Positions 3,873 to 28,659 of a stretch of DNA of 32,000 nucleotides are shown here, piece after piece. Position 1 is the first letter of the stretch; every line of letters begins with the position of its first letter. Made by a program: the position numbers and the translations under genes. Under the pieces are notes generated by a model. The model made no database searches. It was given only the letters and a program-made list of their open reading frames with translations, and was not told where the DNA came from. Location: NCBI GenBank assembly GCA_039809905.1, contig JBDHVY010000001.1:120001-152000 (forward strand), read 5' to 3'. The stretch is from Candidatus Babelota bacterium. GTDB taxonomy: Bacteria > Babelota > Babeliae > Babelales > Vermiphilaceae.

Positions 3873-6800
3873 ATGTCGCAACATTTTACTCACTTACATC
3901 TTCATTCTGAATATTCATTGCTAGATGGAGCGATATCGCTTGATAAACTTATAGCATTTGGTAAAGAAAACAATTATAAAGCCCTTGCCATAACTGATCA
4001 TGGTAATATTTTTGGTGCAGTAAAATTTTTCCAAAAATGCAAAAAGGCTGGAATAAAGCCCATTTTAGGAATGGAAGCATATTTTACCGAAGATGCAAAA
4101 GTAAAAAACGCTGATAACAAGTATTATCATTTGATTATTTTGGTGCAAAATGCAACCGGATACAAAAATCTTTGCAAACTTATTTCATATTCTTATCAAG
4201 AAGGTTTTTATTTTAAACCGAGAGTTGATTACAACATCCTTGAAAAATATTCTGAGGGCCTTATCGTAACAAGCGCATGCCTTGGTGGACATATTCCTAA
4301 ATTATTAATGTCTAACAATCTTAAAGAAGCTAACGAGCGCGTTGAGTGGTTTTTGCGCGTATTTGGACGTGATCGTTTTTTTCTTGAAGTTCAGCCTGAA
4401 GACCAAGAAGAACAAAAAATATTAAATCAAAAGCTCTATACACTATCAGCAGAAAAAAATATTAAACTCGTTGCCGCGGGTGATTGCCATTATGTTTCAC
4501 TGCATGACCATGAAGCTCACGAAATTATGCTCTCCATCCAAACACAAAACAAAATTGATGATCCTGGTCGATTTTCGTTTGGTGATTGCCGCGCATATAT
4601 GCGGACTACCGATGAGATGCTCGCAGAATTTAAAGGACATGAAGAAGCAGTATGGAATGCGGGTCTTATTGCCGATATGTGTAATTTTGATTTTGAAACA
4701 GATAAACTCTTTTTCCCACAATTTATTATCCCGCAAGATCATACACAAGAAACATATTTTGCCCATCTATGCCGTATTGGTTTACAACGATTGAAAGATG
4801 AGCAATTAATCGAAAAATCACAGTGGCAAACATACGATGCACGCCTTGAACTAGAAGTTGATTTGATTACGCGCATGGGATTTGTCGGCTACTTTTTAGT
4901 AGTGAGTGATTTTATTCAATGGGCCTATCGGCAAGGTATTCCTGTTGGGCCTGGGCGTGGTTCTGCAGCAGGATCACTTGTTGCATGGGCATTACAAATT
5001 ACCAATATTGATCCGTTAAAGTACAATCTTCTTTTTGAACGTTTTTTGAATCCTGAACGTATAAGCATGCCTGATATCGATATCGATTTTTGCATTGAAG
5101 GTCGTGATAAAGTTATTAATTACGTACGTGATAAGTACGGTCACGATAAAGTATGCAGTATTATCACCTTTGGTACTATGATGGCAAAAGGTGTAATTAA
5201 AGATGTTGCACGTGTACTTGGTGTTCCTTTTGAAGATTCAAATGCATTAACAAACCTTATTCCAGAACAACTTAAAATTACTCTCAGTGAAGCAATTGAA
5301 CAAGAGCCACGACTACAAGAATTGATTGATAATAATCCACGAATAAAACATGTGTTTGATATTGCTTTCAGATTAGAAGGCCTTACACGCCATGCATCAA
5401 AACATGCTGCCGGCATTGTGATTTCACCAGAACCAGTTGATGAAGTACTTCCTGTATATATTCCGCCCAAATCAAATGAATTAGTAGCTCAATACGCAAT
5501 GACAGAGCTGGAAAGTATTGGCTTTTTAAAAATTGATTTTTTGGGTCTTAAAAATCTTACGCTGATAGACCGCGTACTGCAACTGGTAAAAAATATTCAT
5601 AACGTTTCTTTAGATATGAATAAACTCCCTCTTGATGATCCAAAAACATTTGAACTTATTTGCAATGGCTTAACATCTGGCGTATTCCAGCTTGAATCAA
5701 GCGGACTAAAAGAGGTATTACGTAAATTAAAACCAGATAAATTTGAAGATATTATTGCCGTCAACGCACTCTATCGACCAGGACCTCTTGGATCTGGCAT
5801 GGTTGATGATTTTATTGAACGCAGACATGGCAGACAACAAATTAAATATCTATTTCCTGAATTGGAACCGATTTTAGCTGAAACATTTGGCGTCATTGTC
5901 TATCAAGAGCAGGTAATGAAAATTGCTTCTGCAATCGGCGGATACTCTTTAGGAGAAGCAGATATTTTACGCCGCGCAATGGGTAAGAAAAAAGCAGAAG
6001 TTATGGCAGAACAAAGTGCCATATTTGTTGAAAAATCATCTGCTCGTGGATTTGATGGCAAAAAAGCACAAGAATTATTTGATCTTTTGGCCTACTTTGC
6101 TGGCTATGGTTTCAATAAATCACATTCAGCAGCATATGCATTAATTGCCTATCAAACAGCGTACCTTAAAGCAAATTATTTACCGGAATTTTTAGCATGT
6201 CTTATTTCTCTTGAAGCAACACACCCAGAAAAAATGTCATTTTATCTGCAAGAAGCAAAAGATCTGGGAATTATGCTATTACCTCCGGATATTAATCGCT
6301 CAGATATCCATTTTTCCGTTGTAGATGGTAATATTTTATTTGGTCTACAAGGAATTAAAAACGTTGGTCTTGCAGCATTAGAAAATATTATTGAAGAACG
6401 AAGCAAAAAAGGTATTTTTAAAGATCTGCTCGATTTTTGTAAACGAGTAGATTTACGCACAGCAAATAAACGTGTTATTGAAAGTCTTATTTGCGCAGGA
6501 GCATTTGATACATTACCGGGAAACCGTGCTCAAAAATATCATGAAGTTGAGCATTTAATTGATCTTGCGACTGCACATAAAAAAAATGCCCTTACTGGGC
6601 AGATGGATCTTTTTTCACTCAATAAAAAAAATAGCCAAGGCGATGATTTTTATTCCTTTGAGCTTCGATCAGAATGGACAGACAAAGAAAAACTAGAAAA
6701 AGAACGTGATGCAATAGGCTTTTATATTAGTTCTCATCCTATTGAAACATATAGAAAACAGCTTGGATGGTTTACTATAGAATCATTTGAAACAGCATTA

Positions 6801-7313
6801 GAAAAAGCACAAACAACAAAAGGCGAATATTCAACTATTGGCTGCGGATTATTGAAAACACGCAAAGATATTGTGACTAAAAAAGGCGATCGTATGGCAT
6901 TCTTACAATTTGAAGATATGTCAGGATCTGCTGAAGTTATCGCATTTCCTAAAACATTTGCACGCGCAGAAAAATGGCTAGGCTCTCATAATGTTTTTAT
7001 CATTAAAGGAATTGTTGATGTTGTTGAAGGAAATCCTTGCAAAATAAAAGCTCAAGACATTGTTCCCGTAGAATTGGTTCTCAGCGAGTGGCCACATATT
7101 GAACACATTACCCTAACATTGCCTGATTCGATAACAGAAGAAGTTATTGTTACTGTTAAAGAAAACATAGCCAAGGGCACTGCACCTTTATCGATTATTT
7201 TTTATGAAAATCAAAAAAAATTGCGCCTGAGGGTAAAAGATAGAGTTCTTCTTAATACCGAAAGCGCACAATTATTAGAACAACAAGATATAAAAATAGA
7301 ATGTTGTTTATAA
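3873..7313 (+). CDS. dnaE: DNA polymerase III alpha subunit
   Basis: 1146 aa. N-terminal PHP motif HLHLHSEYSLLDGA, then GFVGYFLVVSDFIQWA, PGRGSAAGSLVAWAL.ITNIDP, MPDIDIDF, RHASKHAAGIVIS, LYRPGP and GYGFNKSHSAAYA. Colinear with DnaE throughout. Confidence 0.97.
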   Translation: MSQHFTHLHLHSEYSLLDGAISLDKLIAFGKENNYKALAITDHGNIFGAVKFFQKCKKAGIKPILGMEAYFTEDAKVKNADNKYYHLIILVQNATGYKNLCKLISYSYQEGFYFKPRVDYNILEKYSEGLIVTSACLGGHIPKLLMSNNLKEANERVEWFLRVFGRDRFFLEVQPEDQEEQKILNQKLYTLSAEKNIKLVAAGDCHYVSLHDHEAHEIMLSIQTQNKIDDPGRFSFGDCRAYMRTTDEMLAEFKGHEEAVWNAGLIADMCNFDFETDKLFFPQFIIPQDHTQETYFAHLCRIGLQRLKDEQLIEKSQWQTYDARLELEVDLITRMGFVGYFLVVSDFIQWAYRQGIPVGPGRGSAAGSLVAWALQITNIDPLKYNLLFERFLNPERISMPDIDIDFCIEGRDKVINYVRDKYGHDKVCSIITFGTMMAKGVIKDVARVLGVPFEDSNALTNLIPEQLKITLSEAIEQEPRLQELIDNNPRIKHVFDIAFRLEGLTRHASKHAAGIVISPEPVDEVLPVYIPPKSNELVAQYAMTELESIGFLKIDFLGLKNLTLIDRVLQLVKNIHNVSLDMNKLPLDDPKTFELICNGLTSGVFQLESSGLKEVLRKLKPDKFEDIIAVNALYRPGPLGSGMVDDFIERRHGRQQIKYLFPELEPILAETFGVIVYQEQVMKIASAIGGYSLGEADILRRAMGKKKAEVMAEQSAIFVEKSSARGFDGKKAQELFDLLAYFAGYGFNKSHSAAYALIAYQTAYLKANYLPEFLACLISLEATHPEKMSFYLQEAKDLGIMLLPPDINRSDIHFSVVDGNILFGLQGIKNVGLAALENIIEERSKKGIFKDLLDFCKRVDLRTANKRVIESLICAGAFDTLPGNRAQKYHEVEHLIDLATAHKKNALTGQMDLFSLNKKNSQGDDFYSFELRSEWTDKEKLEKERDAIGFYISSHPIETYRKQLGWFTIESFETALEKAQTTKGEYSTIGCGLLKTRKDIVTKKGDRMAFLQFEDMSGSAEVIAFPKTFARAEKWLGSHNVFIIKGIVDVVEGNPCKIKAQDIVPVELVLSEWPHIEHITLTLPDSITEEVIVTVKENIAKGTAPLSIIFYENQKKLRLRVKDRVLLNTESAQLLEQQDIKIECCL

Positions 7314-7322
7314 AAATTAAGT

Positions 7323-8651
7323 CTATTGGCTCAATACACCTAATTTTTCATAAACATTATTTATAAAACCATCTCTTCTGCAGATAATCTTCTGTTTTTG
7401 TATTTCAAATGATTCTAAACAAGTACCACATTCATATGATAGAGCTTCGGTGACATCTAACTTACTCATTTGACAAGCTAATGCCTTTATTTTTGGCAAA
7501 TTATTATAATTTTTATCATTCAAATAACGATCTACATAAGATTTTTTGGCTAATAATGTTTTATAATCACTATCATATTTTTTAATTAAATAGTCTGCAA
7601 AAAATGAATTTATTTTTTTAGGACTATTATCAGCGGACATTCTGATTTTATAAAGAAGTTCTTTCCTTTTAACATCTTCAAACATTTCTTTAAGATCAGA
7701 TTGATTCATGTTTTCGGTTAGGCAAGCAAGTTGATCAGAAAAATTACATGTATCAGATCCTAAATTTTTAGATTGAGACCATAGATGATTTATAATCTTT
7801 TTACGCATATCTTGATCAGGATAGCCAATAGTTATATGTTCACCAAACCTACCAGAACGCTTCAATGCCGTATCAAGATTTTCAAAATTATTAGTCGCTG
7901 CAATCACTACCACATCACAATCTTTAGGCGTATTTAATCCATCCATTTCAGTCAAGAATTGAGTAATGATCTCCTTGCCAACACTATCCTCAGAATTACG
8001 AGATGGAAAGCAATCAATCTCATCAATAAAAATAATCGATATCCCTCTCCTTTGTATTTTTTTACCATATTCTATTGCTTGATTTCTTGCTTGCTCAAAG
8101 AGTTCCCGAATCATGGCTTTTGACTCTCCAAAATACTTTTGAGAAAACTCAGAACCCACACAAGAAATGAAAGGAATGCCTAATTCACCCGCAATAGCCT
8201 TGGCAAGAAACGTCTTACCTGTTCCAGGATCACCTAAAAAGAGAAGACCTCGTGGTAAAGAAGTGCTTAATGCTTGATCACAATGCTTGACCAACTCAAC
8301 AAAATCTATCGCTTCTTGAGGAACCCCAACATAATCGGTAAATCTTGTTTCATTATCATCAGGATTGAGTACGATAAAACTATGCGTAGTTGTAATAGCA
8401 CGTTTATACAAGATAAGGGCTACTGTCATTAACGCACCAACCGTAAAGATAGTAGCACAGCTCCTTACCAATTCTTTTACTATGAGATCTTTATAATTCA
8501 ACTCATAGGAAACATCTAAATCAGAGCAATGCGATAGAGAATAATTCATCAATAAAAAGCACAAGATAAATGACTTTAATTTCTTTTTTGTTATCAGAAG
8601 CATCTGTATTCTCGCATATAAAAATATAAAAAATGTTTTTTTATTATACAT
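7323..8651 (-). CDS. Membrane-anchored FtsH-like AAA+ ATPase lacking the M41 protease domain
   Basis: Walker A GDPGTGKTFLAKAIA, Walker B IIFIDEIDC, second region of homology AATNNFENLDTALKRSGRFGEHI. No HEXXH anywhere. The roughly 100 aa after the AAA lid are unrecognisable. Hydrophobic segments lie near the N-terminus. The start is uncertain: the longest ORF begins with TTG at 8660, and ATGs occur at 8651 and 8603. Confidence 0.85.
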   Translation of the reverse strand: MYNKKTFFIFLYARIQMLLITKKKLKSFILCFLLMNYSLSHCSDLDVSYELNYKDLIVKELVRSCATIFTVGALMTVALILYKRAITTTHSFIVLNPDDNETRFTDYVGVPQEAIDFVELVKHCDQALSTSLPRGLLFLGDPGTGKTFLAKAIAGELGIPFISCVGSEFSQKYFGESKAMIRELFEQARNQAIEYGKKIQRRGISIIFIDEIDCFPSRNSEDSVGKEIITQFLTEMDGLNTPKDCDVVVIAATNNFENLDTALKRSGRFGEHITIGYPDQDMRKKIINHLWSQSKNLGSDTCNFSDQLACLTENMNQSDLKEMFEDVKRKELLYKIRMSADNSPKKINSFFADYLIKKYDSDYKTLLAKKSYVDRYLNDKNYNNLPKIKALACQMSKLDVTEALSYECGTCLESFEIQKQKIICRRDGFINNVYEKLGVLSQ

Positions 8652-8683
8652 TAAAAACAATTTTTATATAGCAAGAAACAGAC

Positions 8684-9169
8684 TTATTTCTCTTTTATAT
8701 ACATTACTGCATAGTCATAGAGTTCGGTAGAATATCCGTGCAACGAAGATAAAAATTCTTGGACATGATGATCTTCACTACTCAGAATCAAAATATCAAT
8801 TACCTTTTTGATATGTTCATGCATTCTTGAGACATTGCCCAACACGTAGTGCAATTTTATTGCTTCACGCCGCAAAGCTATATCAACAGAATTCATTATA
8901 ATTAGGTGTTCGCATATAGCGACGGCTTCAAGATATCGTTGTGACTTTTGATATAATTCCATGGCTTGTACATAAAGCTGAATTGCCAATTCTTGTTCGT
9001 TAAAAGAAAAATAAATATCAGCTTCAAGTTGCCGTGCTACAGCAGGATCATTAAATGAATGGGAAAGAAGACGATACACACCCAAAGCACGCTCTTTTTC
9101 TCCACGAGACACACAATCAGCAATTTTAAACCATGCTATTGTGTGCTTATCACATTGGGTCTGCTTCAT
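8684..9169 (-). CDS. Hypothetical all-helical (TPR-like?) protein, probably co-transcribed with the AAA ATPase
   Basis: 161-codon ORF, ATG preceded by AAAGGG. Helix-pair-like sequence (ELAIQLYVQAMELYQKSQRYLEAVAICEHL). Ends about 23 nt upstream of the AAA ORF on the same strand. Confidence 0.5.
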   Translation of the reverse strand: MKQTQCDKHTIAWFKIADCVSRGEKERALGVYRLLSHSFNDPAVARQLEADIYFSFNEQELAIQLYVQAMELYQKSQRYLEAVAICEHLIIMNSVDIALRREAIKLHYVLGNVSRMHEHIKKVIDILILSSEDHHVQEFLSSLHGYSTELYDYAVMYIKEK

Positions 9170-9250
9170 AAGGCCCTTTCAACATTCTCAACAAAAATTT
9201 CATCTCTTTTTTTACTACTCTAGTACAATCGAAAGAAAAATGAAAATGTC

Positions 9251-9499
9251 TTATTTATTTTCAGGCGAATTGAGGCTATTTTGCCTTTTAAATTCTACCT
9301 CATTTTTTTGCCGAGCTTTTATTATGGCTTTAGGAGAACAATCCCAACGCGGACTTGTCTTGTATACAGTGTTTCTATCGCTAGCACCACTTGAAGATGC
9401 ATCTTCTTTTTTTATCGGCAATCTAGCTACTTTTTCAGACGCAAAAACTCCTGAGAAAAAAGATAAACCAATGATTGTTATTCCCATTACATTTTTCAT
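9251..9499 (-). CDS. Small secreted protein (hypothetical)
   Basis: 82 codons, AAGGAAAA RBS before the ATG, typical signal peptide MKNVMGITIIGLSFFSGVFA. Preferred over the overlapping plus-strand ORF 9141-9539. Confidence 0.45.
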   Translation of the reverse strand: MKNVMGITIIGLSFFSGVFASEKVARLPIKKEDASSSGASDRNTVYKTSPRWDCSPKAIIKARQKNEVEFKRQNSLNSPENK

Positions 9500-9628
9500 G
9501 GGGTTTTCCTTTTTTTGTTTAAAACACTTTTTATTTTGATAGCTTTATCAAGGTTAACAGTATAGAAAAAAAAAATACAAGAGACGAGAGTTTTAAAAAA
9601 AGATAAGCTTTGTGGTCAATTAAAAACA

Positions 9629-9718
9629 TGGCCGTGCCAACTGTCCTTCGACAAGCCAGTATGAGCGGTTGCTTTCTTCTTATGGGTGCCCGACCGTAGC
9701 ATTAGCGAAGGTTGGGCT
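9629..9718. repeat. GC-rich hairpin-forming island (element B), directly 3' of tRNA-Phe
   Basis: CCAACTGTCCTTCG (9637-9650) pairs with CGAAGGTTGG (9706-9715), leaving a 4-nt bulge. The segment CCTTCGACAAGCCAGTATGAGCG resembles CCTTCAACAAGTTCAGGGCGAGCG of the gatC-gatA element (about 17 of 24 positions by eye). Confidence 0.5.
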
Positions 9719-9725
9719 AAAAGTT

Positions 9726-9800
9726 TGGTGCCGGGGGTCGGAATTGAACCAACGACGCGAAGCTCTTCAGGCTTCCGCTCTACCACTGAGCTACCCCGGC
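9726..9800 (-). tRNA. tRNA-Phe (anticodon GAA), CCA encoded
   Basis: The reverse complement folds as a cloverleaf: GCCGGGG TA GCTC AGTGGTA GAGC G GAAGC CTGAAGA GCTTC GCGTC GTTGG TTCAATT CCGAC CCCCGGC A CCA. It has a 7-bp acceptor stem, TTCAA T-loop and anticodon GAA. Confidence 0.95.
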
Positions 9801-9896
9801 AATGAAAAGAGTTTTCAATTTTCAGAAGTGTAACATGAGAATATATACACTGTATGGTACCTGTTTATAGATTTTTGTCAATAAAAATGCATATTT

Positions 9897-10727
9897 TTAT
9901 TGGCTACAACATAATGGCTTTGCTCTTCCCGCTTCCATTGCCTCAGGAACTGGAATCAAATCACCCGTAATAACATCAAAAATAAAGCCATAAACCGGAA
10001 TATTTGAAGGAATAAGAGGATGATTTCTTATTTTTTTGACATCCTCAAGAACGGATTCAAATAATCCATTATTAATCGTTAACCAGTCAATAGGATCATA
10101 ATCAATATTTTCTTTTTTACCGCAACAGGTTCCCGCACTTTGCCATTGACACGAAGAATTTTTCTCTAGAACATCAAGCGTTACATTGCAATTTTTAACT
10201 AAAGTAGCCTTCAATGAGTTTTCTTGTAATAATTCTCCCATAACTTCTGGCGTAAATTTTTGCATACCACAATCAGTATGTTGGATCAAAAATATTTCTT
10301 CTACGCCCAACAATTTATAGAGAATAACCAATGATCTAATCCAATCATCGTTAACTCGTGCTCCCGCATTACGCATTATATAGGTACCTTTGGCAACCGC
10401 AGCTAAAAAACCGTTAAGGCGATGATCCATACAAGTTACAATAGCTGCTCTTGTTGGCGCAATCATATCTGGCTGGGGAACATAGGTACGCTCAAAAATC
10501 TTATCTGCTGCTATGATAGCCGCGCAAAGAGGACTATTATTTAAATTGGGAACATTTTCATGCGCATTGCCCGATTCTAGTCCATGGTCTTTTTTGCAGT
10601 TACACTCTTTGCTCATCTTCTTTTCCACCACTATTTTTTTACTATTTATTTTTGCTATCACCTGTTTGGCCAGAAATGGTATTATAAGGCAAAATACAAG
10701 TAAAATACAGAATGATTCTCTTTTCAT
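9897..10727 (-). CDS. Exported beta-class carbonic anhydrase (Cab-like)
   Basis: Zinc-ligand motifs CMDHR and HTDCG sit in the context VTCMDHRL...IMRNAGARVNDDWIRSLVILYKLLGVEEIFLIQHTDCGM...VYGFIFDVITGDL. ATG at 10727 is preceded by AGGGGA; the longer ORF to 10781 starts with TTG. Leader is MKRESFCILLVFCLIIPFLAKQVIA. Confidence 0.85.
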   Translation of the reverse strand: MKRESFCILLVFCLIIPFLAKQVIAKINSKKIVVEKKMSKECNCKKDHGLESGNAHENVPNLNNSPLCAAIIAADKIFERTYVPQPDMIAPTRAAIVTCMDHRLNGFLAAVAKGTYIMRNAGARVNDDWIRSLVILYKLLGVEEIFLIQHTDCGMQKFTPEVMGELLQENSLKATLVKNCNVTLDVLEKNSSCQWQSAGTCCGKKENIDYDPIDWLTINNGLFESVLEDVKKIRNHPLIPSNIPVYGFIFDVITGDLIPVPEAMEAGRAKPLCCSQ

Positions 10728-14105: not shown

Positions 14106-15209
14106 TTATTTTAAAGTTTTATATTTTTTTCCAGAATTTCGTTGTGCATTGCTATTATCACGTTGTTGAGCATGTTGTTTGAGCATATTGCGAATTAATA
14201 TAATTCGATTTTTTTCTTCTGAACTATACATTTGAGATAACATTCTTCTTTTTGAAACATAAAAGCTTGCTTTTTTCTTCCTCATATTGCGCGCTTTGGT
14301 ATTGATATCAGGATGAGTAAGTAATTCAATTACCGAATCACAATAGTGCCGTTCTACTGCATAATGCAATGGCGTCTCTAGTTTTTTATTGCGGACATTC
14401 ACATATATTCCCTTTTTTAACAATACTGGAATAATATCACCACGCTCAAAAGCAACTGCTGAATGAAGCAATGTATTATTAAATTTATCAACAATGTTGA
14501 TGTCTAATATTCCTACATCAATCAATCTTTCAATTAAACAAGGAGATATATCAGGCATCATAAAGACTATATCCTCAATAGAGATAACCCCAAAGCATAC
14601 ATCATTGACAAATGATAGCTTATTGTCTTGAGATGCCTTGTGCATTATTGTTTTTAATTCTGGCAAAAAAGATGATCCTATTATATCTACATTACTACCA
14701 GACAAAATAATCCCTAAATCTTTATCATTTTTAATATGCAACAACCATGAGACATGAGAAATAATATCCTGTTTAATCCTTTCCGGCGTATCATAAAATC
14801 GACGATATTCAACCATATGTTCTGCCAGTGTTCCTTTGTCTGGGTCTCTGTGACGAGCATGGAGCTGCCATAAGTAAGCAAACATTCTTTCATCTTTAAT
14901 ACATGCATAATGTCCCAACGCTTTACTGCATGCATAATAATTAGCAGCTAATCGCTGACATCCATAGGTTGTATGGCACCTTTTAGAACAAGATAAGCAC
15001 ATATTTTCTGTATCATATAATGTATTACAACTGGTAGAACATTGCTTCAAGCGTCCAATACATTGATAAGAAATAAGTGGCTGTATTTCTCTCTGTATAA
15101 TATCAGAAGATAACAATATCATTGCACACCTATTTTCCTGATAATTCATAGCATGAATAGATAGGCCGTAAAGCAATAATAAATATATATATCGCACGTA
15201 ACAATTCAT
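14106..15209 (-). CDS. Leader + F-box-like + ankyrin-repeat protein (subfamily 1)
   Basis: Leader IYLLLLYGLSIHA. F-box-like segment LLSSDIIQREIQPLISYQCIGRLKQCS. Shared module YYACSKALGHYA...FAYLWQLHARHR. ANK repeats NNTLLHSAVAFERGDIIPVLLKKGIYVNVRNKKLETPLHYAVERHYCDSVIELL. Sits 22 nt upstream of the next ANK gene, which has an AAAGG RBS. Confidence 0.8.
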   Translation of the reverse strand: MNCYVRYIYLLLLYGLSIHAMNYQENRCAMILLSSDIIQREIQPLISYQCIGRLKQCSTSCNTLYDTENMCLSCSKRCHTTYGCQRLAANYYACSKALGHYACIKDERMFAYLWQLHARHRDPDKGTLAEHMVEYRRFYDTPERIKQDIISHVSWLLHIKNDKDLGIILSGSNVDIIGSSFLPELKTIMHKASQDNKLSFVNDVCFGVISIEDIVFMMPDISPCLIERLIDVGILDINIVDKFNNTLLHSAVAFERGDIIPVLLKKGIYVNVRNKKLETPLHYAVERHYCDSVIELLTHPDINTKARNMRKKKASFYVSKRRMLSQMYSSEEKNRIILIRNMLKQHAQQRDNSNAQRNSGKKYKTLK

Positions 15210-15302
15210 GATGCAGAGCTCACTCTTGTTTTATTTTATTAAAAAGTTATACACTCAGACTACACGGCTTCTCTATTATAGGGTCAAAAAACTGGGATTG
15301 CT

Positions 15303-16214
15303 ATGAATTTGGCACAGAAAATAACCTATTTTTTTTTAATAAGTGGCAGTATTGTTCTCTGCAATGAAATCCCAACAAAAATGAGCTATACGCAGCGCCG
15401 CAGCAAATTTGCTCGTGAAAAAAAAGAAAAACTTGCACAAAACCGCGCAGCTCGTAATCACCGCCCTTGGTTCCGTAACCGACCACCACATAAACACCGC
15501 ATAACTCATATGTTGGGAGAATTTGCCGAAGATGTGATAAAAATTAATTTAGGTCTTTTTTCATGGGATTCTCTAAAAGTTTTTGTCATCACCGCACCAT
15601 TTTTTGCAGGAGCACGTATGATTGATGAAAAATTACACAACTGTTTTTTTGATCATAAAAATAAAAAAAACAGGAATGAACCTGCTCAATGGTGCAAAGA
15701 AGTTGCGCGCTTGAGCATAGGTATTCCTATTGCTCTTTTAGGAACTCAAGCTTTTTTTAGCCGAGATGATGATATGCAAACGACGAGCCAGGTTTTTTTG
15801 ACCGGTATGCCATTTGTATTACTCGCAAAAGATATTTTTAAGGAACAGCTCAATTTTGATCTCTGTAAACGCCCATATCACCAAGTTTTTGCCAAAGAAC
15901 AACGTAAATTTGGCGGGTTTCCTTCAGGTCACCTCGCTGAAGCTACCTATATGGCAGTACTTTATGGCATGCGCTTTGGACCTAACTATGCAATACCTCT
16001 TGGTACCGTTGCAACTTTCGTTACCATTGTATTTTTATCAAGCAATCGCCATTATCTCTCTCAAATGATTGCAGGAGCTGGATTTGGTGCTATGTATGCC
16101 CTATCTGCAAACAGATTGATAGATTCAAAATTAGCAAAAAAACATGATTTAAAAATCGGTTTATCTGCAGGAGATCATGGAGAACCAGTCATGAAATTAT
16201 CGATGAAGTTTTAG
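15303..16214 (+). CDS. PAP2-like (type 2 phosphatidic acid phosphatase superfamily) membrane protein, third catalytic motif degenerate
   Basis: Several hydrophobic segments. K..(6)..RP-like CKRPYHQ, then PSGH (FPSGHLAEAT). The third motif reads SSNRHYLSQMIAGAG, where the family normally has SR.....H...D, so the SR is absent and D is replaced by Q. The 3' end overlaps the convergent gene by 26 nt. Confidence 0.55.
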   Translation: MNLAQKITYFFLISGSIVLCNEIPTKMSYTQRRSKFAREKKEKLAQNRAARNHRPWFRNRPPHKHRITHMLGEFAEDVIKINLGLFSWDSLKVFVITAPFFAGARMIDEKLHNCFFDHKNKKNRNEPAQWCKEVARLSIGIPIALLGTQAFFSRDDDMQTTSQVFLTGMPFVLLAKDIFKEQLNFDLCKRPYHQVFAKEQRKFGGFPSGHLAEATYMAVLYGMRFGPNYAIPLGTVATFVTIVFLSSNRHYLSQMIAGAGFGAMYALSANRLIDSKLAKKHDLKIGLSAGDHGEPVMKLSMKF

Positions 16215-17061
16215 TCTGAAACTGGTTATTTTTTTCTACAAGATGTTCTAATAAGAATTTTGCTAATTCTTCATTTTCAAATTTATCACGAACAATTTCA
16301 AGCGCCGTTAAACCTTTTTTTCCTATTTTGGTATCAATTCCACGCTCAGGAACTGAGAGATAATTGAGCAGAATAGGACCATTTCCAAGAAAACATAATG
16401 ATTTAAGAAAATCGTTTTCATAGTTTGTGAATTGCAAATATTGATTGAGCACTACTCGTACTCGTTTATTATTACCATTTAATATCGCAACCCATGCATC
16501 TTGATAAGCAGCTTGATTATCATGCTCTTGCTTAATCTGTACGGGTAATTCTCCATAATAAAAAGCGATTCTACGTTCATCATTTAATTCCAGTATAGAA
16601 CCCTCAAACAATGTATCATAATCATAAGGTACTTTATGATCCATTCCATAAATCATATTAAAGTTTTTTTTGATCCTAGCATCAATCAACTTAGAATGAG
16701 TATTTACTACGCGCAACAATATTTTCGAAAGTTTTTCTACTTCGCCATTATATTTTTGAGAAAATATATGTTCTACCGGTGATACCATTGGAGCATGAAA
16801 ATACAAAAAATTTTCAACTGATTCAAAATCAGCATAGCAAGGATTGCTCATAATAAGGGGAATATCTGTTGTTTTATTAAAATCATGACTCGTTCTTTTA
16901 AGTCTCGATAAAGATACACTATTCAAACGCAAATCAATTTCAGTTTTGGCATCTTTTGGTAATAACGCTAAATGGTTTTGATCTTGCACTTGAAGCATTC
17001 CTGATACAGAATAAAAAATAGACAACACACAACAAAACAACCATTTTGTATAATTTCTCAT
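16189..17061 (-). CDS. Leader + F-box-like + C-terminal ANK-like protein (subfamily 2)
   Basis: ATG at 17061 is preceded by AAGGA; the longer ORF to 17079 starts with TTG. Leader WLFCCVLSIFYSVSG. F-box-like segment LLPKDAKTEIDLRLNSVSLSRLKRTSHDF. C-terminus GLTALEIVRDKFENEELAKFLLEH. Colinear paralog of 19844-20680. Confidence 0.75.
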   Translation of the reverse strand: MRNYTKWLFCCVLSIFYSVSGMLQVQDQNHLALLPKDAKTEIDLRLNSVSLSRLKRTSHDFNKTTDIPLIMSNPCYADFESVENFLYFHAPMVSPVEHIFSQKYNGEVEKLSKILLRVVNTHSKLIDARIKKNFNMIYGMDHKVPYDYDTLFEGSILELNDERRIAFYYGELPVQIKQEHDNQAAYQDAWVAILNGNNKRVRVVLNQYLQFTNYENDFLKSLCFLGNGPILLNYLSVPERGIDTKIGKKGLTALEIVRDKFENEELAKFLLEHLVEKNNQFQTKTSSIIS

Positions 17062-17112
17062 TGATACATATCCTTGCAATAACTTATTTTTATAACGATT
17101 ATTTTATTTTAC

Positions 17113-17246
17113 ATTAATTTCTATTGAAAACAACGCTTACATTGTCTTGCATCATCAATAAAATCAGTAATACTAAAAAATATGTATCTTAATTAAAAAA
17201 GGATCTGTATGAAAAAAATATTATCCACGCAATAAAAATGAGTAAA
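17113..17246 (+). pseudogene. Decapitated duplicate of the MIOX promoter region, RBS, start codon and an internal MIOX fragment
   Basis: 17113-17211 aligns with 20733-20830 (about three quarters identical by eye), including AAAAGGATCTGTATG. After the ATG (17209), the sequence AAAAAAATATTATCCACGCAATAAAAA matches MIOX nt 21010-21036. This implies an internal deletion of roughly 175 bp. The remaining ORF is 8 codons. Confidence 0.8.
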
Positions 17247-17321
17247 AAAACATGAATGCAGCTTAGATTGAGTGTTGGTGATCACGGAGAATTAGTCATG
17301 AAATTATCAATGAAGTTTTAA
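17244..17321 (+). pseudogene. Remnant copy 2 of the PAP2-like gene 3' end
   Basis: ...LSVGDHGELVMKLSMKF* compares with the intact gene tail GLSAGDHGEPVMKLSMKF* (16158-16214). No upstream PAP2 coding sequence is present. Stop is 30 nt from the stop of the convergent 763-aa ANK gene. Confidence 0.8.
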
Positions 17322-17350
17322 AAAATCATTAAGCAATATCATAATTTTAA

Positions 17351-19642
17351 TCAGAAGGACCATCTCACAGCTAATTTTTCATGCAATTTTACCGCAAGAA
17401 AACAAACCATTGCAGCAGAAAAAGTCATCATTCCAATTTTTCTTAGGGAAATAAAATGCGATATATTTGCCATCTTATCAACTGAATTTATTGTTGGCAC
17501 ATCTGGTTCATTACTCAATAAATTTGTTTTTGATTGAGACATTTTTTTTGTAATCCCATCCAAAACTTTGTTGAATCCTGAATTTTTCGATATTATTTTA
17601 GTCATTACATCCGACAAACAAAAAAATGGATTTTGTGCTTTAATATATTCCTTGGCTAATTCAATATCCGCTCCAGCCTTTATCAAATTTTCTGCAATGT
17701 CAGGAAAAATTGTATTCCGTAAGAATACTTGACCAAGAGGTGTAATATCATAATCACAAAATTTATAAACAATGTTGGGATCTGCTCCATAAGCTAACAA
17801 AATCTCTGTTGCTGTTCCAAATTCACCATCAATCGCATAAACAAGTGCGGATTTTCCATCTTTATTCTTAGCATTGATATTAATGCCTTTTTTGATGAGC
17901 TTTTCTACTATGAGAGATTTATTAGAAATGTACCAATATATATGATGCAAAATAGTGTTGCCTTTATCATCAACAGTGTCTATCTTTGCATCTGAATCAA
18001 TCAGCAAATATATTAATTTCTTTTTTGATAACAAATGATTACTCAATATTCTGGGCACTAATGTTGATATATCAACATTATGCCCGAATTGACCCTTATC
18101 TAAAAGTAATTTCATTACCCGATCTAATTTTCCATCACCATCAGTTTGCTCAGCTATAGTTTCTACAGCCAAATTTCCATTATTATCGCGAATATTTACG
18201 TCAATATTTAATTGGAGTAATGTTTCTATTGCTTCAGTGCGCAACAACCTACATGCTACATGAAGAACAGTTTCTCCTCTTTCATTCTTAATACTTGGAT
18301 CAACTCCTCTTGAAAACATTTTCTTTATCACACTAGATTTTGGATTATTAAATTTTCTTACATAATAATGCAAAATAGTTTCACCATCATGATACATTGC
18401 ATCTACTTTAATTCCGCTATCAAGAAACATTTCTATAATTTTATCTAGATCATCATCTCTACTTCCTTGAAAAAATCTGCTTTTGCGAAGAACTACACTT
18501 AAAAGATCTTTTTGTTTATATTGTTCATTCTCACTAACAAGATTCACTTCTGCCCCTTTATCTAACAAAAAGCGTACAAGCGAAGCTTCAGGATATTTAA
18601 GAGCAAAATATAGTAAAGATGCTCCATCTTTATCCACCGCATTTATATCATTAAAAAATAAATTTTCTAATATTTCATAAATGAGATCTTTACCAAATAA
18701 ATTTGGCATATCCCAATAATCCAATGATCTCTCCCACAAACAAAATCTATAATCTCTGATAAGATCTTTATATTTTTTAATCAAATTAATAGTTAATTCT
18801 TTTCTACCAGAAGACATTGCCTTAGCAACAATCTTATATATATATTCAGAAAAATTGTATTTTTTTTGGCTTTTGTACAATGCTTGAACATTTTTGATAT
18901 CATTCAAAAAAACTCCAATTGCCAACACATCATCCTCATCGAATGTTTGATGAGAAAGCAACATTGTTTTTATACCAATCCTATTTTTATCTTTCAAAAA
19001 CTTTTTTAACTTTTGAGAGTTGCAATTTTGAATATCTTTCTTACTAGTACAATTTCCGGCATACACACCTAAACAATCATCTAAGGTAGGATCTGAAATC
19101 CCGATAACCTGTGCTACTCCATCTATTCTTTCACATGCGTGATGTTGCCACAAATGCTCAAACATAATCTTATTAGTATCGTTTTTTTCCTTTTTATATC
19201 TTATTGCATGAAAGGCCAAAATCTTGGTACATGCATCAAAATCATTTTTAAAAATAGAACATCCAAAAGAGCTACACAGGCTATTCTGAGGCTCTTTACA
19301 AACTATAATATCACGATAACAGTCGTTATAATGATGACATGTTCTACCAAAACGACCTATTGATTGGTAATCAAAAAAATGAATCATCATATTTCCTGCT
19401 ATATCTTTTGGAAGCGGAATAACAACAGCACCTAATGATATGATCTTCTTTTCTTGAGATTTAGTTTGAGTTTTGTCTTGTTGCTCCATCAGATATCCGG
19501 CTTTCCAAAAAAGACAAACTTGTTTTTTTGACTCCATTCCACATGAATACATAAAAGAAAATAAAAAAACCAAGACACTGAGAGTTTGCTTGCTCATAAT
19601 TACATGATTTCGTAGAAAAAACTTATATATTTTATCGAACAT
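17351..19642 (-). CDS. Large leader + F-box-like + multi-ankyrin protein with C-terminal hydrophobic tail (subfamily 1)
   Basis: 763 aa. Leader LSVLVFLFSFMYSCG; an alternative ATG at 19597 would start at MSKQTL. F-box-like segment IPLPKDIAGNMMIHFFDYQSIGRFGRTCHHY. Shared module FDACTKILAFHA...FEHLWQHHACER. At least 8 ANK repeats (e.g. GETVLHVACRLLRTEAIETLLQLNIDVNIRDNNGN, GKSALVYAIDGEFGTATEILLAYGADPN). C-terminal hydrophobic segment IGMMTFSAAMVCFLAV. Confidence 0.85.
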   Translation of the reverse strand: MFDKIYKFFLRNHVIMSKQTLSVLVFLFSFMYSCGMESKKQVCLFWKAGYLMEQQDKTQTKSQEKKIISLGAVVIPLPKDIAGNMMIHFFDYQSIGRFGRTCHHYNDCYRDIIVCKEPQNSLCSSFGCSIFKNDFDACTKILAFHAIRYKKEKNDTNKIMFEHLWQHHACERIDGVAQVIGISDPTLDDCLGVYAGNCTSKKDIQNCNSQKLKKFLKDKNRIGIKTMLLSHQTFDEDDVLAIGVFLNDIKNVQALYKSQKKYNFSEYIYKIVAKAMSSGRKELTINLIKKYKDLIRDYRFCLWERSLDYWDMPNLFGKDLIYEILENLFFNDINAVDKDGASLLYFALKYPEASLVRFLLDKGAEVNLVSENEQYKQKDLLSVVLRKSRFFQGSRDDDLDKIIEMFLDSGIKVDAMYHDGETILHYYVRKFNNPKSSVIKKMFSRGVDPSIKNERGETVLHVACRLLRTEAIETLLQLNIDVNIRDNNGNLAVETIAEQTDGDGKLDRVMKLLLDKGQFGHNVDISTLVPRILSNHLLSKKKLIYLLIDSDAKIDTVDDKGNTILHHIYWYISNKSLIVEKLIKKGININAKNKDGKSALVYAIDGEFGTATEILLAYGADPNIVYKFCDYDITPLGQVFLRNTIFPDIAENLIKAGADIELAKEYIKAQNPFFCLSDVMTKIISKNSGFNKVLDGITKKMSQSKTNLLSNEPDVPTINSVDKMANISHFISLRKIGMMTFSAAMVCFLAVKLHEKLAVRWSF

Positions 19643-19704
19643 AAATATATCTTAATTGCAGATAAACAAAATAAATAAATAGTCATCGTTACTTCTTTTT
19701 TTCT

Positions 19705-19821
19705 TTGCATACTGAAAACAGGTTAATTGATTCCACATTAACAAAAAAACAGGAAATGCAATTCGGGCTTTCTGCTGGTAATAGCAGAGAGCCCGTTATG
19801 AAATTATCAGTGAAATTTTAA
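19705..19821 (+). pseudogene. Remnant copy 3 of the PAP2-like gene 3' end
   Basis: 19712-19821 aligns with about 16105-16214 of the intact gene (by eye about three quarters identical). Tail is GLSAGNSREPVMKLSVKF*. A 1-nt indel near 19763 breaks the frame. Stop is 23 nt from the stop of the convergent gene 19844-20680. Confidence 0.75.
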
Positions 19822-19843
19822 TTGTTTTATTCTAAAAAAAATT

Positions 19844-20680
19844 TTATGCTCCATGTTCCAATAAAGCTTTCTCTAATTCCTTGTTTCCGTAGAGTATTGC
19901 AAGTTCAAGAGCTGTAAGAGATCCTACTTCTTCGGTATAATCAATACCACGTTTTGGAATTGATAAATAATCCAACAAAATAGTGCTATTTCCAAGTTTA
20001 CATAAAGGCTCAAGCAATGCATGAAAATCTGCAAATTGCTTGTAATGATTAAGTACTACTTTCAATCGTGCAATATTTCCATTTTTTGCTGCATATAATG
20101 CATCTTGATGAGCTGCATCGAGAATGCCATTGATAATAGAATCATTTTGAATAAAATCCAACTCTTCATCTAATTTGATTTGTCCTGGCAATTTTCCAAA
20201 ATAAAAGGCTATTCTATCATTTTCTGTTAGCTCTAACTTATCAACAAAATACGCCCCAAAACTGCCACATTTTATAGAAAAATATACTTGTATAATATTT
20301 GAATCAATTTTTTCCATATGATTATTAATTATAGCAGCACATCTCTTTCTTAATCCTTGAGCATCATTCATTCCCAATGCAGGTATGCGGGGAACCTGAT
20401 GATATAAAAACTTTTCCACCAATTTAAAATCATCATAAGAAGGATTTGTTAAGATAGGTCCTAAAATAGTCTCTATATTAGTTGCATCATTCAAGTATTG
20501 ACATACGCTTTTAATTCGTCCCAAAGTTTGAATATCAGAATGCAATTGAACACCAAGTAAAGAAGCGTGTGGCAAAAATTGCACTTGTGGCTTTGGTTTT
20601 GCTACAGACACTAGCATACACGATGTCTGAGAAAAAAGAGAAATTGTTATCGTGAAAAAATATAATGATATATTACTCAT
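19844..20680 (-). CDS. Leader + F-box-like + C-terminal ANK-like protein (subfamily 2)
   Basis: Leader ISLYFFTITISLFSQTSC. F-box-like segment FLPHASLLGVQLHSDIQTLGRIKSVCQYL. ANK-like segments DALYAAKNGNIARLKVVLNH and SLTALELAILYGNKELEKALLEHGA. Colinear with 16189-17061 (RIAFY.G.LP.QIK, LL.YLS.P.RGID). Confidence 0.75.
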   Translation of the reverse strand: MSNISLYFFTITISLFSQTSCMLVSVAKPKPQVQFLPHASLLGVQLHSDIQTLGRIKSVCQYLNDATNIETILGPILTNPSYDDFKLVEKFLYHQVPRIPALGMNDAQGLRKRCAAIINNHMEKIDSNIIQVYFSIKCGSFGAYFVDKLELTENDRIAFYFGKLPGQIKLDEELDFIQNDSIINGILDAAHQDALYAAKNGNIARLKVVLNHYKQFADFHALLEPLCKLGNSTILLDYLSIPKRGIDYTEEVGSLTALELAILYGNKELEKALLEHGA

Positions 20681-20732
20681 AGGAAAAATCTTTCATTGTT
20701 GTGCATAACTATAAAATCATCGATAAATATAT

Positions 20733-20827
20733 ATTAATTTCTATTAAAAACAACATGGCGATTTTTCTTGCATCACGAGTAAAATAAGCAATACTAAAAT
20801 ATATCTCATCTAAAAAAAAGGATCTGT
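20733..20827 (+). promoter_or_regulatory. Conserved MIOX upstream region (putative promoter plus RBS), duplicated at 17113-17208
   Basis: TTGCAT, 16 nt, AATACT is present in both copies with the same spacing, followed by AAAAGGATCTGT and the ATG. Conservation between the two copies is the main evidence. The promoter hexamers are only a moderate match to consensus. Confidence 0.4.
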
Positions 20828-21673
20828 ATGAAAAAAAATCTGTTTTTATATACATTGCTCACTACACTTAACATAGCTGCGATACAATCTTGCGATAATG
20901 CTAAACCTGAGCATGATTTTCGCGATTATGATAATGTTTCAGAAAAAGTCCTCAAATTTTATCGCTTGAACCACACACACCAAACACTTGATTTCGTTGT
21001 TGCTCAGAAGAAAAAATATTATCCACGCAATAAAAAAGTAATGAGTATTTGGGATGCTATGAAAATGCTTGATACTATTGTTGATGATAGTGATCCCGAT
21101 TTAAATAGCGCACAAACGGTACATGCATTTCAAACAGCAGAACAATTACGCAAAGATGGTCACCCTCGATGGCTTATTTTAACAGGCCTTATTCATGATC
21201 TTGGCAAAGTTCTTATTCTTTTTGGTGAACCTCAATGGGCAGTTGTTGGAGATACTTTTCCCGTAGGATGTGCATATTCAAACAAGATAGTTTTTTCAGA
21301 TTATTTTTCACTTAATGCTGATATACACAACAGGAAACTCAACCATAAATATGGAATCTATCAACCATGTTGTGGTCTTGATAATGTACATATGTCATGG
21401 GGACATGATGAATATTTGTATCAAGTAGTTAAACAATATCTACCTGATGAAGCATCATATATTATCAGGTATCATTCATTTTATGCAGCACACAAGCAAG
21501 GAGAATATGACTATTTAATGGATGACTATGATCGATCAATGATGAAATGGGTAACTTTATTCAGTCATTATGATTTGTATTCAAAAAGCCCAGAACCGGT
21601 GAACGTTTCTGAGCTTATCCCTTTTTATCAAGAATTAGTAGCGGAATTTTTTCCCGAAAACCTAAGATGGTGA
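20828..21673 (+). CDS. myo-Inositol oxygenase (MIOX, eukaryote-type HD-domain di-iron oxygenase) with an N-terminal leader
   Basis: Colinear with animal MIOX as I recall it: FRDY, YRLNHTHQTLDFV, VDDSDPD, HAFQTAE, LTGLIHDLGKV, GEPQWAVVGDTFPVGC, YQPCCGLDNVHMSWGHDEYLYQ, IRYHSFY, YDLYSKS, and it ends ...LRW. The N-terminus MKKNLFLYTLLTTLNIAAIQSC is leader-like. Confidence 0.92.
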   Translation: MKKNLFLYTLLTTLNIAAIQSCDNAKPEHDFRDYDNVSEKVLKFYRLNHTHQTLDFVVAQKKKYYPRNKKVMSIWDAMKMLDTIVDDSDPDLNSAQTVHAFQTAEQLRKDGHPRWLILTGLIHDLGKVLILFGEPQWAVVGDTFPVGCAYSNKIVFSDYFSLNADIHNRKLNHKYGIYQPCCGLDNVHMSWGHDEYLYQVVKQYLPDEASYIIRYHSFYAAHKQGEYDYLMDDYDRSMMKWVTLFSHYDLYSKSPEPVNVSELIPFYQELVAEFFPENLRW

Positions 21674-21705
21674 TACCTCATTTAAATTAAATCTTATAAT
21701 TGAAT

Positions 21706-21736
21706 ACCTGTTACGAAGCAAAGCGACGTAATAGGT
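21706..21736. terminator. Possible bidirectional hairpin between convergent MIOX and HPS/KGPDC-family genes
   Basis: ACCTGTTACG (21706-21715) pairs with CGTAATAGGT (21727-21736) at 9 of 10 positions, with an 11-nt loop. There is no strong U-tract on either side. Confidence 0.3.
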
Positions 21737-21750
21737 GTTTAGATAATATA

Positions 21751-22377
21751 TTAAAATCTGTCTACCAGTTCAGCAAAATATTGTGCTTCTTGCGCTGCAT
21801 CTTCTGCATCAGTAATACTAAGCCCAACAATAATTACATCTGGTCTGAGGGCTACAATTTTATCAACATTATTACGATTAATTTTTGCAGAAACAAAAAT
21901 AGGCAGATTTGTATTGCCTTTTATCATATCCCATTTATCAAGAAATACGAGTGATTCTGTTTCACTATATGGTTGGTGAAATAAAAGCGCATCTACTCCC
22001 AAATTTTTTGCTTCCAAAGCAGATTGACCTATTGATTGTGAGTCAATAAGGTCAATCATTACTTTAACATTTGCATTATGTGCAGCAGTTGTAGTTGCAT
22101 GAATCACATGATGAGATGTTCCTGCCATTACGGTAATCCAATCTACACCGGCATCGGCAAAAAGCTCTACTATTTCTTTCCCTCGGTCAACAATTTTTGT
22201 ATCAGCAAGAATAATTTTATCAGGAAATGCTTCTTTAAATCGTTTTACAGCAGTAATTCCATGATGATAAATAAGAATGGTTCCTATTTCAATAATATCG
22301 GCATATTGAGCAACTTCTAATCCAATGGCAATCGCTTTGTCCAAATCAATAAGATCGAATGAAATTTGTAACTTCAT
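21751..22377 (-). CDS. 3-hexulose-6-phosphate synthase / 3-keto-L-gulonate-6-phosphate decarboxylase family enzyme (OMP-decarboxylase suprafamily)
   Basis: MKLQISFDLIDLDKAI...DIIEIGT...AFPDKIILADTKIVDRG...VDWITVMAG is the HPS/KGPDC N-terminal pattern. ATG at 22377 is preceded by GGGAA; the longer ORF to 22446 starts with TTG. Confidence 0.8.
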   Translation of the reverse strand: MKLQISFDLIDLDKAIAIGLEVAQYADIIEIGTILIYHHGITAVKRFKEAFPDKIILADTKIVDRGKEIVELFADAGVDWITVMAGTSHHVIHATTTAAHNANVKVMIDLIDSQSIGQSALEAKNLGVDALLFHQPYSETESLVFLDKWDMIKGNTNLPIFVSAKINRNNVDKIVALRPDVIIVGLSITDAEDAAQEAQYFAELVDRF

Positions 22378-28629: not shown

Positions 28630-28659
28630 AAAAAGGAGGCTATAAAGCCTCCTTTTTTT
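28630..28659. terminator. Bidirectional intrinsic terminator
   Basis: A-run, GGAGGCT (28635-28641), loop ATAA, AGCCTCC (28646-28652), T-run (28653-28659). Located between the convergent hydrolase gene and gene 28714-28998. Confidence 0.8.

Follow-up and report, generated by a model that had tools for sequence, protein, structure and literature searches.

Orphan PAP2 gene tails and a second MIOX start suggest stepwise, mosaic growth of an ankyrin-type gene array in a Babelota genome

What process leaves the 3' end of one phosphatase gene three times in the same locus, each time next to the end of a convergent gene? The question is raised by an array in contig JBDHVY010000001.1 (assembly GCA_039809905.1) of a Candidatus Babelota bacterium, of which we analyzed a stretch of 32,000 nucleotides (nt), positions 120,001 to 152,000, referred to here as the window. 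In this array, an intact PAP2-family phosphatase gene and an intact myo-inositol oxygenase (MIOX) gene enclose three ankyrin-type (ANK) genes on the opposite strand, which we have named ANK2a, big ANK and ANK2b. Among them lie two orphan copies of the PAP2 3' end (tails 2 and 3; tail 1 is the end of the resident gene) and a second copy of the MIOX upstream region and start (Table 1). We consider it probable that the tails and the second MIOX start are the junction scars of at least two duplicative recombination events between PAP2 and MIOX, a hypervariable slot in which different lineages of the Babeliales keep different secreted, mostly ankyrin-type genes. Growth of the array would then have been stepwise and mosaic, going beyond a simple amplification in place.

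Comparison of the window with itself by BLASTN recovered the repeats where an initial annotation of the sequence had placed them, far above what is expected by chance. PAP2 tail copies 1 and 2 (16127-16213 and 17235-17320) are 77% identical over 87 nt (E 4.2e-11), and 16105-16512 matches 19712-20116 with 64.6% identity over 415 nt (E 2.3e-14). The upstream region and start of MIOX, at 20730-20837, recur at 17110-17218 (80%, 111 nt, E 8.6e-20), and a piece from inside the gene, 21011-21041, is found again at 17213-17245 (94%, 33 nt, E 3.2e-6). An independent repeat search returned the same families, including a 26-nt exact match between 17213-17238 and 21011-21036 (family D14). The tail peptides reported in the annotation are the translations of the three tails. 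Regarding the stop codons of the convergent ANK genes, tail 1 overlaps one by 26 nt, while tails 2 and 3 end 29 and 22 nt away from theirs, in agreement with that description.

These fragments are true remnants of the PAP2 coding 3' end and of the MIOX promoter and 5' end. The PAP2 protein has 179 homologues at E <= 0.001, and those with a name belong to Candidatus Babeliales (Dependentiae/TM6). Its C-terminus, GDHGEPVMKLSMKF (...LGLSxGDHGEPVMKLSMKF), is conserved in the approximately 70 homologues that we inspected, which identifies the tails as PAP2 coding sequence rather than an unrelated element.

In order to place the array in context, we mapped the window proteins onto about 60 related loci, designated here by numbers with the prefix L. 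The window derives from sample SRR27308757, and L011 and L057 from rhizosphere samples. These loci share a backbone formed by PheS, NTP transferase, PAP2 and MIOX (both forward), an OMP-decarboxylase-like gene and a hypothetical gene (both reverse), and GidB and MatE (both forward). PAP2 and MIOX are adjacent, 12-100 nt apart, in L004, L008, L014, L021, L022, L026, L028/29, L042 and L045, loci of varied depth; this adjacency is so widespread that it is probably ancestral. The gap between the two genes is hypervariable: L002 has an unrelated gene there, and L006, L007 and L016 have inserts of 1.2-2 kb. A single unit, with a reverse ANK2 gene after PAP2, followed by the intergenic region and MIOX, is present in L017, L020, L044, L058, L059 and L060. 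One step further, L056 reads PAP2, an ANK gene that we call ANKx, an orphan PAP2 tail, an ANK2b-type gene and MIOX, and its orphan tail matches its own PAP2 tail with 90% identity over 163 nt (E 3e-58). L057 matches window positions 18321-21070 at 87.5%, a segment that holds the 5' half of big ANK, a decayed orthologue of tail 3, ANK2b (84% amino-acid identity) and the MIOX start. The junction at 19711/19712, where the region upstream of big ANK meets tail 3, also exists in L056 and L057. The full arrangement with three tails was found only in this organism.

The synteny comparison gave an extra intact copy in a relative for one of the two genes. A contig of JGI sample 3300075153 (25,289 nt, PAP2 at 86% amino-acid identity) carries two intact MIOX genes, of 285 and 286 amino acids (aa), about 3 kb apart; each is preceded by a plus-strand gene of approximately 340 aa, and this local duplication has kept both MIOX copies whole. 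A second intact PAP2 gene was present in none of about 55 related loci.

Table 1. Features of the PAP2-MIOX array, in window coordinates.
Feature	Coordinates	Strand	Remarks
PAP2-family phosphatase gene, intact	15303..16214	+	Pfam PAP2, E 2.9e-8
Tail 1, last ~70-87 nt of resident PAP2	16127-16214	+	Ancestry differs from that of the gene body
ANK2a, signal-peptide protein, ANK2 family	16189..17079	-	C-terminus extends 26 nt into PAP2 tail
Copy of ANK2-MIOX divergent intergenic region	17080..17212		20-nt motif at 17114-17133, MIOX ribosome-binding site, ATG 17209-17211
MIOX internal piece (MIOX nt ~184-220)	17213..17244	+	94% to 21011-21041
Tail 2, orphan PAP2 3' end (PAP2 nt ~825-912)	17235..17321	+	1-nt deletion and in-frame stop upstream
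Big ANK, 763 aa	17351..19642	-	Pfam Ank_2, E 7e-31; ANKu/L025 family
Upstream region of big ANK	19643..19711		Promoter-like block; abuts tail 3 at the older junction
Tail 3, orphan PAP2 3' end, last ~36 codons, decayed	19712..19821	+	Adjoins ANK2b; hairpin 19764-19795
ANK2b	19844..20680	-	Orthologues at 66-84% in L056, L057, L058, L059
Resident ANK2b-MIOX divergent intergenic region	20681..20827		20-nt motif at 20734-20753
MIOX gene, intact	20828..21673	+	Pfam MIOX, E 2.9e-102; syntenic in relatives

Duplication within one genome predicts that the three tails are each other's closest relatives, and they are not. The intact PAP2 tails of L044 (88%) and of L017 and L020 (83%) are more similar to tail 3 than tail 1 is (73%); among the informative sites, 17 favor L044 over tail 1 and 2 the opposite (p 0.0007). 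The segment from tail 3 through ANK2b to MIOX aligns collinearly with its counterpart in L058, where the PAP2 tail is intact (80.5%, 1523 nt), so tail 3 is the original PAP2 3' end in its original context. As the orphan is common to L056 and L057, it is older than their split from this genome. Tail 2 is closer to the intact tails of L011 (85%) and L014 (84%) than to tail 1 (77%), with site patterns of 14 against 5 for L011 over tail 1 (p 0.06).

Tail 1 itself does not share the history of the gene that it terminates. L011 is the closest relative, with a PAP2 protein of 96% amino-acid identity. From nt 1 to 840 the two genes diverge by 8.5%, and in the 72 terminal nt the divergence rises to 27.8% (Fisher p 5e-6); 14 changes are crowded in nt 846-870, including a TCT/AGT switch of a serine codon. 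Such crowding points to a replaced patch rather than to gradual change. The tail-1 peptide HDLKIGLSAG was absent from all the other PAP2 homologues inspected. The initial annotation had taken the many synonymous differences among the tails to suggest that the lost copies were once functional genes. The differences between tail 1 and L044 (10 synonymous, 5 non-synonymous codons) are indeed those expected between functional PAP2 alleles, although of different lineages. In contrast, the codons that distinguish tail 3 from L044 (4 synonymous, 10 non-synonymous) have no third-position bias and look like neutral decay after orphaning.

Among the ANK genes, ANK2a and ANK2b are paralogues (BLASTP, 34% amino-acid identity, E 2e-39). 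The ANK2 proteins form two groups, one with ANK2b, L056, L057 and L058 (66-84%) and another with L017, L020 and L044 (43-48%), and ANK2a is equidistant from every other ANK2 protein (33-37%). A search of 5.8 billion proteins gave no homologue of ANK2a besides itself. Big ANK, by BLASTP, is no paralogue of ANK2 and clusters with ANKu1 and ANKu2, located upstream of PAP2, and with two ANK genes of L025; it has an orthologue in L057 with 74% protein identity. In ANKx of L056, which occupies the equivalent slot, the first 278 residues are paralogous to ANK2 (E 1e-10 to 1e-11), and an extra part with ankyrin and hydrophobic sequence follows at the C-terminus; ANKx has an orthologue (68%) in the gene that follows PAP2 in L011. 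Big ANK and ANKx are homologous only in their 5' end and promoter (window 19553-19674 and L056rc 9653-9774, 78%), which apparently reflects an exchange of the gene body at this position.

The junction between the MIOX fragment and tail 2 is the younger one, and it reads as the initial annotation had described: the MIOX intergenic region, ribosome-binding site and ATG are fused to an internal piece of MIOX and then to a PAP2 tail. At 17235-17245, MIOX nt ~220 is joined head-to-tail to PAP2 nt ~836 through an imperfect microhomology of 6-10 nt, and the breakpoint lies within an ambiguous 10 nt (17235-17244). On its left, the MIOX start is joined to MIOX nt ~184-220 via a deletion between two GAAAAAA(A)T microhomologies. 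What remains at 17209 is ATG AAA AAA ATA TTA TCC ACG CAA TAA, an open reading frame of 8 codons (MKKILSTQ*). The intergenic copy that precedes it shares 76-83% identity with the corresponding spacers of L017, L020, L044 and L056-L058. We also looked for a mosaic signal along the intact MIOX gene by sliding identity, and the weak rise toward L017 and L020 at nt 151-300 was unconvincing.

From these observations we infer an order of events, a recombination mechanism and the nature of the partner DNA. PAP2 and MIOX would have been adjacent at the beginning (state 1), and a convergent ANK2 gene would then have come to lie between them (state 2). In state 3, a second ANK gene would have been added together with a new PAP2 3' end, stranding the former tail, now tail 3, beside ANK2b; the junction at 19711/19712, common to L056 and L057, would mark this older event. 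In state 4, reached only in this genome, a block formed by tail 1, ANK2a, the intergenic region and MIOX nt 1-220 would have been added; illegitimate recombination at 17235-17245 would have joined its right end to tail 2, at that time the end of the resident PAP2 gene, and a later microhomology deletion would have taken out MIOX nt 13-183. Each event would restore an intact PAP2 gene and push the previous 3' end downstream, which we refer to as 3'-end displacement. Formally, this would be a tandem duplication by unequal or illegitimate recombination. That the tails are of mixed ancestry suggests partner DNA which was, at least in part, a diverged allele from a related strain instead of a sister copy. 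Homologous recombination between the direct repeats of the tail would also permit units to be lost.

One could argue that the tails have been kept, or even copied, for a function of their own, since tail 3 contains a hairpin (19764-19795) with a 14-bp GC-rich stem and a fold z-score of -4.2. Tails 1 and 2 are unstructured (z-scores of -1.0 and +0.8). The codons LGLSxGDxGEPV form a GC-rich stem of 10-14 bp, with -21 to -26 kcal/mol per 60 nt, exclusively in lineages with a convergent ANK2 gene directly downstream (L017, L020, L044, L056, L058-L060) as well as in tail 3 and the L057 orphan; elsewhere PAP2 tails range from -4 to -18 kcal/mol, with -10.6 for tail 1 and -6.7 for tail 2. Tail 3 and the L057 orphan keep a stem of 12-14 bp although their reading frames are no longer functional. 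In L057 a 6-nt deletion falls in the hairpin loop, and one stem position appears as C-G, U-G or U-A. Across eight sequences, 94% of the cells are paired and one pair has changed on both sides, which is no better than in shuffled sequences, so we treat the hairpin as suggestive. On the sense strand of ANK2b a U-run begins 16 nt after the stem, and the terminator scan found none there. A role as a predicted 3'-end or terminator element of ANK2b is plausible, and could explain why tail 3 was retained, though not how the copies originated. In the two L056 tails (L056rc 7908-8070 and 9818-9978), the last 100 nt are the same, whereas the 63 nt before them share 75% identity and contain two indels, a pattern that indicates either a recent gene conversion or a strong constraint on the part bearing the hairpin.

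The initial annotation had explained the array by tandem amplification: one unit of PAP2, convergent ANK gene and MIOX would have been amplified in this lineage, the extra PAP2 and MIOX genes staying functional for a while before their deletion, and the ANK genes diverging. The head-to-tail junction at 17235-17245 and the single-unit relatives are as this account predicts, and so are the paralogy of ANK2a with ANK2b, the ANK2 paralogue ANKx of L056, and the related contig with two intact MIOX genes; local divergence would also fit the lack of counterparts of ANK2a and tail 1 elsewhere. However, big ANK belongs to another family and is not a copy of ANK2, tail 3 groups with PAP2 alleles of other lineages by 17 sites to 2, the tails are not sisters, and the tail of the resident PAP2 differs in ancestry from its body. 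Besides, ANK2a falls outside all the sampled ANK2 orthologues even though ANK2b keeps 84% identity with L057, and no locus has two intact PAP2 genes. The flanking copies are also far more similar than the genes between them: 73-89% for the tails and 80% for the intergenic copies, against 34% amino-acid identity for ANK2a and ANK2b, and in L056, 90% for the tails against 24% for ANKx and ANK2. Long purifying selection on the former as parts of functional PAP2 and MIOX genes and of a promoter, whether in this lineage or elsewhere, together with fast ANK evolution, could produce this contrast, if that is what happened. We consider amplification in place rather unlikely. At the same time, several points weigh against displacement by diverged DNA. 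Despite dense sampling, we found no lineage that could have donated an ANK2a-type gene or a PAP2 end of the tail-1 type, so ANK2a could be a local duplicate that diverged fast. The tails of L056 are identical at the 3' side and divergent at the 5' side, the opposite of what simple displacement predicts, and gene conversion between tails would weaken any ancestry drawn from such short sequences. The tails have just 87-110 nt, the affinity of tail 2 for L011 is marginal, an ancient local triplication with lineage-specific losses can give the same groupings, and the two intact MIOX genes on one contig indicate that true local duplications occur at this locus.

We give much less weight to three further explanations. 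Site-specific integration of islands or cassettes into the PAP2 3' end, with the tails as attachment-site repeats, would account for direct 3'-end repeats that each flank a different cargo gene, and perhaps for the strong hairpin of tail 3. Yet the hairpin is missing from tails 1 and 2, the repeats measure 87, 110 and, in L056, 163 nt with differing 5' boundaries, and a MIOX promoter and 5' remnant at one junction is not predicted by such a mechanism. No tyrosine or serine recombinase, integrase or transposase was found among the genes called within 10 kb on either side of the array (PheS, NTP transferase, ANK genes, PAP2, MIOX, OMP-decarboxylase-like, GidB, MatE and GatC), consistent with the lack of a visible mobile element reported by the initial annotation. 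Integration of this type is extremely unlikely. That the short copies are functional non-coding elements of the convergent ANK genes, such as a shared terminator or a small RNA, is suggested by the GC-rich stem kept in tail 3 and in the L057 orphan and embedded in the PAP2 tails of the ANK2 lineages, by the L057 deletion falling in the loop and by the stem position that changes from C-G to U-G or U-A. We find it very unlikely as their origin: the copies clearly derive from PAP2 coding sequence, two of the three tails are unstructured, covariation does not exceed that of shuffles, the U-run lies 16 nt from the stem, and neither a canonical terminator nor an Rfam family was identified (the sole match at E <= 1 in 15000-22000 was a chance CRISPR-DR22 inside big ANK). 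Finally, strain variants of one locus could have been joined in series by the assembler, given that the genome is metagenome-derived and the three-tail arrangement is known only here. A Logan short-read contig (L001) is identical to the window array, with 0 mismatches in 15,146 nt, and ANK2a is also present on a 1.23-Mb NCBI contig, which makes an artefact unlikely. In addition, the right-hand part and its scar exist independently in L056 and L057, a junction microhomology of 6-10 nt is too short to mislead an assembler, and the fragments are decayed by a frameshift and stop codons. An artefact seems most improbable on all these counts.

The copied MIOX upstream region had been described as a decapitated, orphan promoter. 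The block is not an orphan, as it still lies upstream of ANK2a, and it contains a conserved motif of 20 nt, TTAATTTCTATTAAAAACAA. Seven related loci (L017, L020, L044, L056-L059) carry this motif unchanged between ANK2 and MIOX, as does the window at 20734-20753, and the copy at 17114-17133 has a single mismatch, although the rest of the spacer is only ~80% conserved. Read on the ANK strand, it offers a TTGTTT -35-like box and, 16-17 nt on, an AT-rich -10-like box. A block at 19650-19674, upstream of big ANK, resembles the motif, with 77% identity to 20723-20753 (repeat family D13). The motif is probably a promoter or operator shared by the ANK genes. In the promoter and terminator scan, promoter-like sites were fewer than in shuffled sequences and no tail contained a terminator. 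As for 19643-19711, we considered that it might be a remnant of the ANKu2-PAP2 spacer and discarded the idea: BLASTN with 15200-15310 gave no match there, and the region matches the upstream region of ANKx in L056 instead.

The labels given to the ANK genes also needed revision. They had been called F-box-like, and no F-box family was detected in Pfam in five ANK N-termini even at E <= 10. The ankyrin label stands for big ANK which, like ANKu1 and ANKu2, has strong ankyrin repeats in Pfam. For the ANK2 pair it does not reach the same level, as ANK2a has no Pfam ankyrin match and ANK2b has only sub-threshold ones (Ank_3, E 0.0045, 17.8 bits with a cut-off of 22.3; Ank_2, E 0.056). A structure model of ANK2b, built from a 10-sequence alignment, has a mean predicted local distance difference test (pLDDT) score of 50; it is confident only for residues ~190-278, which form helical hairpins, and stays below 50 in the N-terminal 180 residues. 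In this model, the C-terminal ~90 aa look like weak ankyrin repeats. A motif, LPxD...LGR..VC, is conserved, and all the ANK genes here begin with a signal-peptide-like segment. At the other end, big ANK (17351-17450), L011 (2278-), L025 and the ANKx-type proteins have a hydrophobic, membrane-anchor-like C-terminal stretch, for example IGMMTFSAAMVCFLAVKL. ANK2a (16189-16260) does not have the ...LLEHGA* end of its family and runs for ~17 extra codons into the antisense of the PAP2 tail, having apparently lost the ancestral stop codon. Short, near-perfect palindromes (28-53 nt, 83-93%) are present at 18048-18089, within the big ANK coding sequence, and at 7305-7356 and 28630-28657. Ankyrin repeats were found in all seven TM6 genomes analyzed in a previous study, where they are discussed as likely mediators of host interaction (PMC4776705). 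The ANK proteins of the window are putative effectors.

Similar scars can be seen at other places. L025 has an independent duplicate of the PAP2 tail (5308-5381 and 7023-7095, 93% over 74 nt), located between two big-ANK-like genes of merely 72-75% nucleotide identity. L029 carries two copies of the MIOX tail with its downstream flank (8385-8571 and 9389-9576, 98.9%, 188 nt), separated by a C-terminal fragment of the OMP-decarboxylase gene (8630-8692) and a gene for a 132-aa signal-peptide protein (8788-9186); this is a very young scar of the same kind, located at the neighboring gene junction. In the window itself, a yicC-like gene has its intact 3' end at 1-337, and a decayed orphan copy of that end, with a 17-nt deletion and a CAA>TAA stop, lies at ~1335-1699, beyond a convergent gene for a 270-aa signal-peptide protein (405-1217, minus strand). 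The yicC tail and its orphan differ at 1 of 111 positions and then at 18 of 132, in 17 codons of which 16 changed synonymously (p 1.5e-4). Because divergence comes in two parts, it does not correspond to uniform decay of a local duplicate, and the pattern suggests that a diverged functional allele replaced the resident 3' end and displaced the old one downstream.

A broader process could be imagined from these cases, although we regard it as speculative and, on balance, unlikely. Babeliales would gain, stack, lose and exchange secreted effectors in a cassette-like manner that needs no recombinase, using the conserved 3' ends of PAP2, MIOX, yicC and the OMP-decarboxylase-like gene as homology anchors. 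In the ANK2 lineages the hairpin of the PAP2 tail would serve as 3' end or terminator for the convergent effector, recombination between strains co-infecting a host cell would insert a unit and displace the previous tail, and the direct repeats would allow excision. If so, orphan gene tails would be a genome-wide record of effector traffic in the phylum.

The processes invoked here, namely segmental duplication, illegitimate recombination and the erosion of pseudogenes, are well known. The array resembles a tandem segmental duplication in its head-to-tail repeats, in the microhomology that joins distal to proximal sequence and in the later erosion of redundant parts. It differs in that the copies are not sisters, the middle gene comes from another family, and the events are separated in time, one of them being common to other genomes. 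Expansions of ankyrin-repeat genes are also familiar from intracellular bacteria such as Wolbachia and Legionella and, in Wolbachia, these genes are often linked to prophages or insertion sequence (IS) elements. As in those expansions, lineage-specific, fast-evolving, secreted ANK proteins accumulate here; unlike in Wolbachia, no mobile-element gene is found nearby, and array growth can be traced through the scars of the flanking housekeeping genes. With integrons and integrative islands the array has in common an ordered cargo between repeats of a target 3' end and the outward displacement of older units, whereas it has no integrase, no fixed repeat boundaries and no common attC-like site.

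The closest parallel is found in polymorphic toxin loci. In the effector-immunity arrays of the V. cholerae type VI secretion system (T6SS), sequential displacement has been proposed to proceed via homology-facilitated illegitimate recombination (PMC5361080), and a C-terminal displacement has been described for rhs genes (Jackson et al. 2009, as cited in PMC5361080). In those arrays, as here, entry is anchored in the conserved part of a resident gene, which receives a new 3' end while the old one is orphaned downstream; repeated events build an array, the orphans resemble intact alleles of other strains, and no integrase takes part. Two of these features, the mismatch in ancestry between the 3' end and body of PAP2 and the downstream orphans that resemble intact alleles of other strains, are present in our locus, and a donor lineage for the newest unit was not identified among 5.8 billion proteins or the PAP2 homologues inspected. 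The differences are also clear: the anchor is an ordinary PAP2 gene with a conserved tail, whereas polymorphic toxins have a variable tip; a convergent gene for a secreted ANK-type protein takes the place of a toxin tip and its immunity gene; and one junction includes the promoter and 5' end of MIOX and so looks like that of a classical tandem duplication. The mechanism at our locus is a proposed one. In the literature searched, no such duplication or 3'-end displacement at a gene-gain hotspot was described for this phylum. The locus presents what seems to be the stepwise enlargement of a secreted ankyrin-type set in a small host-associated genome, without phages, IS elements or integrases, with intermediates preserved in relatives and junctions that can still be read. 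It is a known kind of process in a new setting and overturns no current view. If displacement is confirmed, it would extend a process known from the polymorphic toxins of Rhs, contact-dependent inhibition (CDI) and T6SS loci to an ordinary enzyme and to the host-interaction genes of Dependentiae, and orphan tails could be used as markers of effector gain and of recombination between strains.

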